Translations under genes and position numbers: made by a program
Notes under the pieces: model-generated
Databases searched by the model: none
The model's input: the letters and a program-made list of their open reading frames with translations, nothing else
What the model was told of the DNA's origin: nothing
In this document: positions 8,870 through 11,496 of the stretch, piece after piece
Layout: each line of letters starts with the position of its first letter
Numbering within the stretch: position 1 is the first letter of the stretch
DNA from: Candidatus Paracaedibacteraceae bacterium
GTDB taxonomy: Bacteria > Pseudomonadota > Alphaproteobacteria > Paracaedibacterales > Paracaedibacteraceae
Length of the DNA: 24,000 nt
Direction: 5' to 3'
NCBI GenBank assembly: GCA_019459505.1
Contig: JAIBEV010000132.1
Span: 263,559-287,558 of the forward strand

Positions 8870-9315
8870 TGCATAAGATTAAGTTATCTCCCATAATTCA
8901 TAAGGCAGAAAAGATTTCCCATAAAGAGGATTCTCTTAATTTTGTCCTATCAACAGTCATCGCTATTAAAGTAAGAGTTCCCCTGTACAGAGAGAGGTTT
9001 AATATTGGGATAAAAGAGTTAAAAATCCTGTTGTCTTTCCACAATATAATGATATTTCTCGGTTATGAGAAGAAGAGGGGTGGCTAACTCATGCTTATTA
9101 TCATGGGGTTATCCAGGCGGGAATAAAGATGGTTATGGATTAAAGCTACTCCTCTGTGGACCTTTAAATAGGAGTAAATTTAAAAATTGACTCTATTATT
9201 TCAGGCAAAGTTCTCATTTTCAAAATATTTTTTATGTTCCTTGTAAAGATAACAAACTATTCCCACCTTGTGCTTATAAGCCATCTTTTTTACTTAAGAT
9301 TCCAAGAGGAAAGCT

Positions 9316-11496
9316 ATGACAATACTAAGAGCAAAATTTATCTCTTCATTATCCTTTTTAATTTTAGGAGGAGCTCCTTCTCTTTGTTTAGGAATGGATG
9401 CACCTCATTTAGATAATATGAAGCCAGACTTACAAGTTGCTGTTAATCCGGAAAAAGATCGATTGACAAAGCAATTCCTAATTTTAGCATTATCTGTGCC
9501 ACCGACTGAGGAAGCGAGTGTTTTAGGGAATTTAGAGATACAGGCTTATCCAGAGATAGACAACAAGTATTTAAATTATTTTGACCAAGACTTAATGCGT
9601 ATCGATGAGTTTAAACAGTATTGTATAGAACCTTTAAAACTTATAATAAATTCTCCTGACTTAATAAATAAAATTAGTCCAGAATTATTAGGTAGCTATG
9701 CGGATCTCATTGATCAAAAATTTACTAAACATTTTATTTATTTAATTAATCTTGTAGAGGATAATCCCAAAAAATCACATTTATCAATTGCTTTCTCAAA
9801 ACTTTTTTTTGTTAGCCTTGTAAATTTTTGCCGTAAAGATGTATGCGATTTTAAGAAAATAACATATTTTCCGAGTAAAATATTTTTTCCTATGATAAAT
9901 AACAGTGTATCATTTGTACAATTTCTTTTGGTACGAAATCATATAAATAAACTCTATAATTATATTTACACGAGGGGGGTAACAAGAAAATCCTTAAACG
10001 CAAAAGACTATTATGATTATTTAGATGAGATTCAAAAAGATTTTAATCATACATTTAATTTTACGGAAGATTTCGGGCGTAGTTACAAAAAGAAACGTCC
10101 AAAGCCTGAGCATCCACAAAAGCACTATGTTGAAAATAAAAGACCAAGAGTTGACGATGCTCGGCCTGTTCCACAAGTACAAGATATTCAAGCAGTGCCG
10201 CCAGCACCAGACAAACCTAGGAAGAAGCGTTTTATGGATGAGATAAGGGAAATGGTTGGTCAAATATTAAAGAGTCATTATGAAGTGCCTGCTCCGGCTA
10301 CTCCTCCAGCACCAGCTGAAGCGGTGCTTCAAGAGATTCCCAATCCTCAAGTTCCTCAAGCAGGTGCGTTTCAATATGGGCCGAAGCCACCAGCACCTCA
10401 GCCAGTTGTCCCTCCGCAAGGTAACATTAATCCAGTAATACACCATCCTTTTGGCTTCCCACAGGTTATGAATCCACAAGCTCCTCAACCAGGTGCGTTG
10501 CAACATGTACTGAAGCCGCCAGTGCTCCCACACCTCGCCTTTCAAAGAGGCCAAGCTCCTTTAGCTCCACAAGGAGTAGTCATCCAAGGTGATCCAAAGC
10601 CCTCTGAACCCGCAAGACAAATTGCAGTCGTGAAAAGATTACGAACCCGCGAAGGATATACATATTTTAAAAATAATACCGGTGCTATTTTTTATGGGGA
10701 TCTAACACAAGCTAGAAGTGCAACTCATGAGCAACGCCAAAAATTAACTGAAATTTTTAACCAACTTATCGAGTTACGTTTTAATAAACAAATTAATGAA
10801 GAAAATTACAAAATTGCTTATGGTGTTCTAGAAGTTATTGGGACTGCCATAAAAGAAAACCGACAAATTTGTAAGGAGCTTTTCAAGAAATTTTCAGAAA
10901 ATCATCAAAATTATATACAGTATAGCCTAGAGCCTCGGGTTGTTATTCATTGTGAACAAAGGGATATGCCCGCCCAAGATAGAACATTTGCTGTTTATAA
11001 TACTTTGGCTTTAGCCTATGGATTTGCGGTGGAAAGTAATATTGTACAAGACTTTTTTACTCATGCATTTTTGGACGATTTATCGGGTTTTGGCTGTCTT
11101 GACGGTGCTCAGAAAATTTTATTAAATTGGCTTGAAGCAAATATGGAAAAAATTGAAAGAGTGAAAAATAAGGAAATTAAAGAAACAGTTATAACAGATA
11201 GTTCAATTTTTCAAACATTCGCAGAAGTTATCAATGAATCAAAAAATAAGACCATAATTAATGGTTTGGATCACTTAACTTATAACCAATATATGGAAAA
11301 ATTGAAAGCAGAGCAGAGTTTCCAACAGCTAGAAAAAGAGAAACAGAATATACAAATCATGAGGGCTGAAGAGATATTCTACGGTGAATTAGAAGAGAAT
11401 ATTAGAGTTAACGTTCTGGAAAAACTGCTCAATTTGAAATATGAGGTTGACATTGAAGCTATAGAAAGATGTTGGACTATTTTAAGAGGAGAATAA
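9316..11496 (+). CDS. orphan secreted proline-rich protein (candidate host-targeted effector)
   Basis: 726-aa ORF with the ribosome-binding site AGAGGA 5-6 nt upstream. The N-terminus MTILRAKFISSLSFLILGGAPSLCLG looks like a Sec signal peptide. Flanking domains are AT-rich and the core is P/Q-rich. No family recognised. Confidence 0.8.
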   Translation: MTILRAKFISSLSFLILGGAPSLCLGMDAPHLDNMKPDLQVAVNPEKDRLTKQFLILALSVPPTEEASVLGNLEIQAYPEIDNKYLNYFDQDLMRIDEFKQYCIEPLKLIINSPDLINKISPELLGSYADLIDQKFTKHFIYLINLVEDNPKKSHLSIAFSKLFFVSLVNFCRKDVCDFKKITYFPSKIFFPMINNSVSFVQFLLVRNHINKLYNYIYTRGVTRKSLNAKDYYDYLDEIQKDFNHTFNFTEDFGRSYKKKRPKPEHPQKHYVENKRPRVDDARPVPQVQDIQAVPPAPDKPRKKRFMDEIREMVGQILKSHYEVPAPATPPAPAEAVLQEIPNPQVPQAGAFQYGPKPPAPQPVVPPQGNINPVIHHPFGFPQVMNPQAPQPGALQHVLKPPVLPHLAFQRGQAPLAPQGVVIQGDPKPSEPARQIAVVKRLRTREGYTYFKNNTGAIFYGDLTQARSATHEQRQKLTEIFNQLIELRFNKQINEENYKIAYGVLEVIGTAIKENRQICKELFKKFSENHQNYIQYSLEPRVVIHCEQRDMPAQDRTFAVYNTLALAYGFAVESNIVQDFFTHAFLDDLSGFGCLDGAQKILLNWLEANMEKIERVKNKEIKETVITDSSIFQTFAEVINESKNKTIINGLDHLTYNQYMEKLKAEQSFQQLEKEKQNIQIMRAEEIFYGELEENIRVNVLEKLLNLKYEVDIEAIERCWTILRGE
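10342..10527 (+). repeat. intragenic duplication, period about 129 bp (43 aa), in the Pro-rich core
   Basis: aatcctcaagttcctcaagcaggtgcgtttcaatatgggccgaagccacc (from 10342) matches aatccacaagctcctcaaccaggtgcgttgcaacatgtactgaagccgcc (from 10471). At protein level NPQVPQAGAFQYGPKPP matches NPQAPQPGALQHVLKPP. Confidence 0.7.

Follow-up and report, generated by a model that had tools for sequence, protein, structure and literature searches.

The consensus quoted for the nuclear localization signals (NLSs) of nucleomodulins is K-K/R-X-K/R (PMC7819608). The hexamer KRPRLD forms the core of the engineered signal oNLS (PPPKRPRLD), which drives Cas9 into nuclei (PMC9068219) and which is attributed to Inoue et al. 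2016, as cited in that article, and KKRKLD is the NLS of yeast Pif1, which scores 8 in cNLS Mapper and in which the defect caused by deletion of KKRK is rescued by the SV40 NLS (PMC10399864). Among bacteria of the suborder Holosporineae, Holospora obtusa PRP1 is a periplasmic protein of 63 kDa that bears a putative signal peptide and is released into the macronucleus of its host by an unknown route; weak DNA binding and a D5_N-like DNA-binding region have been reported for it (PMC9866348). Little is understood so far of the ways in which Holosporineae manipulate their protist hosts (review PMC11909080), and no effector has so far been known for the Paracaedibacter/Odyssella symbionts. Here, we present a concrete candidate, the family of P0001, a protein of 726 amino acids (aa). 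P0001 is an orphan modular protein encoded by the open reading frame (ORF) at 9316..11496 on the plus strand, the sole long ORF considered, of a 24,000-nucleotide stretch (the window) of the genome of a Candidatus Paracaedibacteraceae bacterium (assembly GCA_019459505.1, contig JAIBEV010000132.1, positions 263,559 to 287,558). Between two domains it carries clusters of basic residues that resemble a bipartite NLS. Our leading reading, to which we assign a probability of about 0.45 from the sequence evidence, is that P0001 is a host-directed protein that is sent to the host nucleus by a classical importin-alpha NLS and is thus a candidate nucleomodulin. Since NLS-bearing bacterial effectors are already known, it would represent a new family within a known class.

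Basic clusters and their conservation

The first cluster, KKKR, occupies aa 258-261 (10087-10098, plus strand) and the second, KRPR, aa 275-278 (10138-10149, plus strand). With the 13-aa spacer and the end of KRPRVDD, they make up a candidate bipartite NLS at aa 258-281 (10087..10158, plus strand). A third cluster, PRKKR, is found at aa 301-305 (10216-10230, plus strand), at the N-terminal end of a predicted helix. In the translation, all three clusters lie to the base where a preliminary description of this DNA had placed them, and the gap that it gave between the first two is exactly 13 residues, between R261 and K275. The likeness to a bipartite NLS noted in that description holds for patterns with a long spacer of 12-14 residues but not for the classical rule: the spacer counts 12 residues by the 3-of-5 rule and 13 as KR-X13-KRPR, and the pattern with a 10-residue spacer is unmatched. 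K-K/R-X-K/R core matches in P0001 are KKKR (258), KRPK (260), and KRPR (275), and simple PSORT-type rules return seven four-residue matches and two matches of the P-plus-basic kind. PRKKR, which had been likened to an SV40-type core, agrees with the looser four-basic and P-plus-basic rules, whereas RKKR fails the strict K-K/R-X-K/R form. Of the proposed SH3-ligand motif, the fit of PPAPDK to PxxPx[KR] stands, but such matches are near the composition expectation (5 seen in the linker versus 1.9 expected, p = 0.04), since the linker is 21% Pro, and the motif is not conserved, the sequence flanking it being different in the closest relative of P0001. We regard PRKKR and the SH3-like PxxPxK as probably incidental.

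P0001 is not unusually basic overall (12% K+R), yet its basic residues are clustered. Three or more K[KR]x[KR]/[KR]4 clusters within 50 aa were reached at a frequency of 0.0008 in 20000 shuffles of P0001, and just 5 of the genome's 1807 ORFs that are 150 aa or longer have the same cluster density. Among these five densest ORFs is also G000 C49:7868-9511 (plus strand), which combines a signal-peptide-like leader with three basic clusters within ~25 residues (aa 379-400).

The preliminary description had named a lack of conservation of the basic residues as evidence against its proposal. Clusters 1 and 2 are kept among homologues and cluster 3 is not. Among 5.8 billion protein clusters, P0001 has one close relative, the metagenomic protein P0002, to which it is 81% identical. 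Both proteins are identical over aa 258-278, within a linker that is the fastest-evolving part of the comparison (aa identity, 0.65; ratio of nonsynonymous to synonymous divergence, dN/dS, 0.54) and that is 65% identical in its remainder. A broken copy in the genome G002, that of a sister species in the same genus, has KRKR, a 13-aa spacer, and KRPRVEI but no third cluster; PRKKR is replaced by QPKRR in P0002 and by SGKNN in G002, the local aa identity being 0.53. In G003, the third genome of the genus, the paralogues are 25-38% identical to P0001 and their linkers are unalignable, but clusters follow the N-domain, directly so in most of them (KRQR..KKLKV, KRKRG..KRKRR, KRKRG..QRPRLD, KRR..KRLRL, KRKRA, and KRRSP..QRPRLD), and the spacer in P0001 paralogues measures 13-25 aa. 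A strict linker cluster is present in eight of nine same-genus members, in six of which clustering beats shuffles at p < 0.01. In a second, independent orthologue pair, P0004 and a G003 paralogue that is 90% identical to it, both KRKR are kept although 5 of the 20 residues that separate them have changed, which is the signature expected for a bipartite signal. In distant homologues, whose N-terminal regions are different, KKPRLD, KKRKLD, KKRRIHED, or RKRKAPE stands ahead of the C-domain. The pattern [KQ][KR]x[KR][LVI][DE], which was set post hoc, after seeing the data, and counted over paralogues that are not independent, occurs 6 times in 5398 inter-domain residues versus 0.25 occurrences expected from the proteome. 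At the DNA level, the longest identical run between the P0001 gene and the P0002 gene (L016) spans 94 nucleotides (10061-10154) and covers the bipartite segment, with 0 synonymous changes in 31 codons versus a gene-wide synonymous divergence (dS) of 0.24.

Taken together, clusters 1 and 2 are, on the sequence evidence, a conserved element of NLS-competent appearance in an exported orphan protein, and this segment is very likely import-competent if it reaches the eukaryotic cytosol. Under the leading reading, P0001 would be exported by Sec and then directed to the host by a bacterium of the Paracaedibacter/Odyssella group. KRPRVD would bind in the major site of importin-alpha and KKKR in the minor site, forming a long-linker bipartite signal that would carry the mature protein of ~80 kDa into the host nucleus. 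Since ~80 kDa is too large for passive entry, P0001 would require active import; once released from a symbiont that lies in the cytoplasm, as the described relatives do, a protein would presumably come into direct contact with importins. The motif, the disorder around it, its conservation, and its closeness to validated NLS cores are what the data show; that the leader is cleaved and that P0001 leaves the bacterium, binds importin, and accumulates in the nucleus is what we infer.

Architecture, distribution, and export of the P0001 family

The whole protein was modeled with AlphaFold (AF2), and the C-domain was also modeled alone with 31 homologues. A helical N-domain at aa 45-247 (9448..10056, plus strand; predicted local distance difference test score, pLDDT, ~80-90) and a C-domain at aa 437-726 (10624..11493, plus strand; pLDDT of 92.4 and predicted template modeling score, pTM, of 0.80) enclose a region, aa 250-436, that is modeled as disordered (pLDDT ~30) except for the one short helix at aa 303-322 (10222-10281) at which PRKKR lies. 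The part of it that follows the second cluster, aa 279-436 (10150..10623, plus strand; pLDDT ~30), is a Pro/Gln-rich linker (21% Pro and 11% Gln) that includes the PxxPxK motifs. Over aa 250-300 the pLDDT is ~28-34, flanked by domains at 80-92, which places the basic segment in an accessible context. Whole P0001 had no sequence match in Pfam, NCBIfam, or the PDB, and a 31-member profile of the C-domain had none in Pfam or the PDB. When both domain models were compared with known structures, Foldseek gave no meaningful neighbor in the PDB (E of at least 1), the best hits of VIA-align among 48161 chains were designed helical bundles and CAMP factor, with a Z of 6.5 at most, and a search of the ESM Atlas by shape and features returned template modeling (TM) scores of at most 0.27 and feature scores below 0.6. 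Judged from its model, the C-domain may be a new fold.

The genome that carries the window (G000) comprises 2.64 Mb in 172 contigs, has a permuted transfer-messenger RNA, and falls in one genus with G002 and G003. These two match, and are taken as, Ca. Paracaedibacter (Odyssella) acanthamoebae and Odyssella thessalonicensis, both of which are cytoplasmic symbionts of Acanthamoeba; according to a review of the group, the described relatives of this bacterium live free in the host cytoplasm. We infer a protist-endosymbiont lifestyle from these relatives. Copies of the P0001 gene that are at least 99% identical occur in bioreactor, coral-reef, and soil metagenome contigs, which means that the bacterium either is widespread or accompanies a common protist. 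Public reads matched to the window belonged to near-identical strains alone and added no further orthologue.

The contig of P0002 shows the gene order of the window (Tim44, SecB, MFS, amino-acid permease, and then the family gene), and P0002 is therefore an orthologue. Among 41 genomes of the order, relatives of P0001 were found in its own genus alone, in addition to a borderline match in G039 (E = 0.009). G002 has a single family copy (L012:2410-4468, minus strand), which is interrupted in the N-domain by a frameshift and in-frame stops and is located on the opposite side of the MFS gene relative to the window. In G003, 13 matches to P0001 come from at least seven family ORFs, mostly in two arrays on C20 and C17: L009 (C20:215500-226500) has two paralogues and L011 (C17:120500-135500) at least four, and the arrays include domain-shuffled members, some with the N-domain or a C-terminal module in duplicate and some reduced to the C-domain. 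The C-domain profile retrieved 41 representatives from 1.84 billion proteins, nearly all of them on single metagenome contigs, and full-length C-domains were confined to this genus among 62 genomes of the order; the N-domain profile (aa 84-247) matched same-genus members alone. The family thus has few members and a patchy distribution, evolves fast, and shows both expansion and decay of paralogues, a pattern usual in host-interaction genes. The MFS transporter that adjoins the P0001 gene (11697-12892, minus strand) is divided between two ORFs in the window, whereas the MFS gene of G002 (L012:5042-6001) appears intact, since both halves share one frame there.

P0001 begins with a Sec-type leader at aa 1-25 (9316..9390, plus strand). 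By inspection it follows the rule for Sec signal peptidase I (a basic n-region, a hydrophobic h-region of 10-15 residues, and small residues at -3 and -1), with R5 and K7 in a basic n-region, a hydrophobic core, and C-L-G preceding Met26; AlphaFold models aa 2-19 of it as a helix. A Shine-Dalgarno-like GAGGA (9306..9310, plus strand) was read from the sequence 5 nucleotides ahead of the ATG at 9316, and Met1 is therefore taken as the start codon. Met26 was considered as an alternative start and rejected, since GAGGA precedes Met1 and the leader is kept as protein in GC-richer paralogues. A leader followed by Met-Asp/Glu is also present in the P0001 paralogues and in distant homologues, among them ones from other metagenomes.

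A crude scan of the genome returned ~50 ORFs, many of them large and paralogous, with a signal-peptide-like leader that ends in [AGSC]-Met-[Asp/Glu]; examples are C112:9216-14006, C132:5801-12310, and C8:60246-61418, in addition to that of the window (9316-9396). At the x of [AGSC]x[DE] behind a hydrophobic core, Met is more frequent than any other residue (14% versus 4% in other N termini). This leader end may mark an export or host-targeting class, or may mimic a NatB-type N terminus. The wider proposal, in which these ~50 proteins would form a Holosporineae export class not recognized before, with an invariable Met-Asp/Glu mature N terminus (a lineage-specific tag for host targeting or export, or a mimic of eukaryotic NatB-type N termini) and the two-domain family would provide the first nucleus-targeted effectors of the group, with two new folds and an oNLS-like signal, we consider unlikely.

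Alternative explanations for the basic segment

A number of observations weigh against nuclear targeting of P0001. Single basic clusters are weak evidence, because K[KR]x[KR] occurs at least once in ~1/4 of the ORFs of the genome, and the 13-residue spacer falls outside the classical 10-12 residues; longer bipartite linkers have reportedly been found functional by Kosugi and coworkers in 2009. Within the family, L011:12505-14310, P0023, and P0040 have no strict cluster, and the class of proteins with a leader plus Met-Asp/Glu is not clearly enriched in clusters (1.20 versus 1.04-1.08 per 1000 aa). The genome is a metagenome assembly, as judged from the best coverage of the window by a bioreactor metagenome. 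The leader indicates at most periplasmic export. Neither VirB4 nor GspL was found in the genome, which has weak TraD/VirD4-like matches, two secretins, one of which adjoins Tad-like T2SSF genes, and the type VI sheath gene TssC. The secretins may be part of pili, and a type VI system is not expected to take Sec substrates. A review of the group names type VI secretion as the main delivery candidate, for whose functioning and secreted molecules experimental data are lacking.

The spacer also counts against an NLS, since it is conserved in P0001 and P0002, and in part in G002 (EH..K.HVEN), to a degree that exceeds what a bipartite signal requires. The segment may have a more specific partner than importin or may attach to a polyanion. 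It would then be a functional linear motif that serves a purpose other than import, either a patch for polyanions (DNA/RNA, phosphoinositides, lipopolysaccharide, or peptidoglycan) or a docking site for a specific partner of the host or the bacterium, and the protein would act either in the cytoplasm of the host or in the bacterial envelope. The limit of the leader to periplasmic export, the lack of an identified route across the outer membrane, and the weak DNA binding of Holospora PRP1 fit such a role. The succession of leader, domain, Pro-rich spacer, and domain is also known from envelope-spanning proteins such as TonB. We nevertheless find this explanation doubtful, since in the second orthologue pair and in the paralogues the clusters are retained with spacers that vary in sequence and in length (13-25 aa), since [KR]x[KR][LV][DE], the tail that recurs, resembles NLSs specifically, and since paralogue expansion, fast evolution, and pseudogenization typify host-interaction genes and not envelope housekeeping genes. 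The clusters might also have no function and be a by-product of an A-rich, Lys-rich gene with a low-complexity linker. The N-terminal half of the gene is indeed AT-rich (~31% G+C), and the frequency of K[KR]x[KR] among the ORFs and the lack of enrichment in the exported class point in the same direction, but composition-preserving shuffles reject chance, the segment is the best-conserved part of a fast-evolving linker, and the motif recurs in the unalignable linkers of paralogues and distant homologues, so that we judge a functionless origin to be quite improbable.

The exposed position between two domains would suit dibasic or furin/kexin-type sites (R-X-K/R-R or KR), at which cleavage would free the N-domain from the C-domain; RKKR (aa 302-305) conforms to R-X-K/R-R, and KRKR and KRKRR occur in paralogues. 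A conserved R-X-K/R-R site is missing, however, as RKKR reads PKRR in the 81% identical orthologue P0002 and GKNN in G002, Pro follows KKKR and stands at P2 in KRPR, and the conserved [LV][DE] tail lies outside convertase recognition. Kexin and furin enzymes, moreover, act in the secretory pathway, whereas the described relatives are free in the cytoplasm of their hosts. With RKKR unconserved and Pro at unfavorable positions, a role in processing is very unlikely. Constraint on the nucleotides of 10061-10154 (RNA structure or an internal signal) or a recent gene conversion would explain why the longest identical run between the orthologues lies here and is free of synonymous changes. Against it, a near-identical soil-metagenome strain has a synonymous 10122 G>A change within the spacer (Lys AAG to AAA), and in the G002 copy and in the paralogues the basic residues are retained although the DNA that encodes them differs. 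This explanation is accordingly the most improbable of all. An internal promoter or terminator under 10061-10154 was also considered and rejected, as matches were no commoner than in shuffles.

Comparison with known nuclear signals and effectors

The P0001 family pairs a short conserved signal with two well-modeled domains that match no known fold. If the signal works, it would show that the classical import pathway of the host is open to a Sec-exported protein from a symbiont in the cytoplasm, and the family would point to a nuclear target process to look for. Known nucleomodulins such as Agrobacterium VirD2 with two NLSs, Xanthomonas TAL effectors, and Coxiella CaeA (PMC7819608) resemble P0001 in their basic import-type signals and, if P0001 stems from a symbiont as its relatives suggest, in their origin from host-associated bacteria. 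They differ from it in that they reach the host by injection through type III or IV systems and that their activities in the nucleus are known, whereas P0001 has a Sec leader, its genome yielded no VirB4, and both of its domains are without a match to a known protein or fold. VirD2 also shares with P0001 an alphaproteobacterial origin. The C-terminal bipartite signal of VirD2 begins with KRPR.

The resemblance of P0001 to Holospora PRP1, which is one of description and not of sequence comparison, lies in the fact that both are lineage-specific, leader-bearing proteins of the suborder Holosporineae. PRP1 thereby provides a precedent within the suborder for a leader-bearing periplasmic protein that reaches the host nucleus. 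Since Holospora lives inside the macronucleus, PRP1 needs no NLS, unlike P0001 as we read it.

The closest counterparts of the second cluster, oNLS and the Pif1 signal, were retrieved by a full-text literature search for the cluster-2 hexamers. P0001 is unlike them in that it is bacterial, bears a Sec leader, and has an upstream cluster 13 residues away, so that its candidate signal would be a bipartite one with a long linker. A common layout of basic, aliphatic, and acidic residues is found in the signals of SV40 (KKRKVED) and c-Myc (KRVKLD). With oNLS and Pif1, P0001 shares K-K/R-X-K/R followed by an aliphatic and an acidic residue, in a disordered setting. Members of the P0001 family have QRPRLD, KKPRLD, and KKRKLD, the last of which is the Pif1 hexamer itself, and KRPRVD of P0001 differs from the KRPRLD core of oNLS by one conservative change, Leu to Val.

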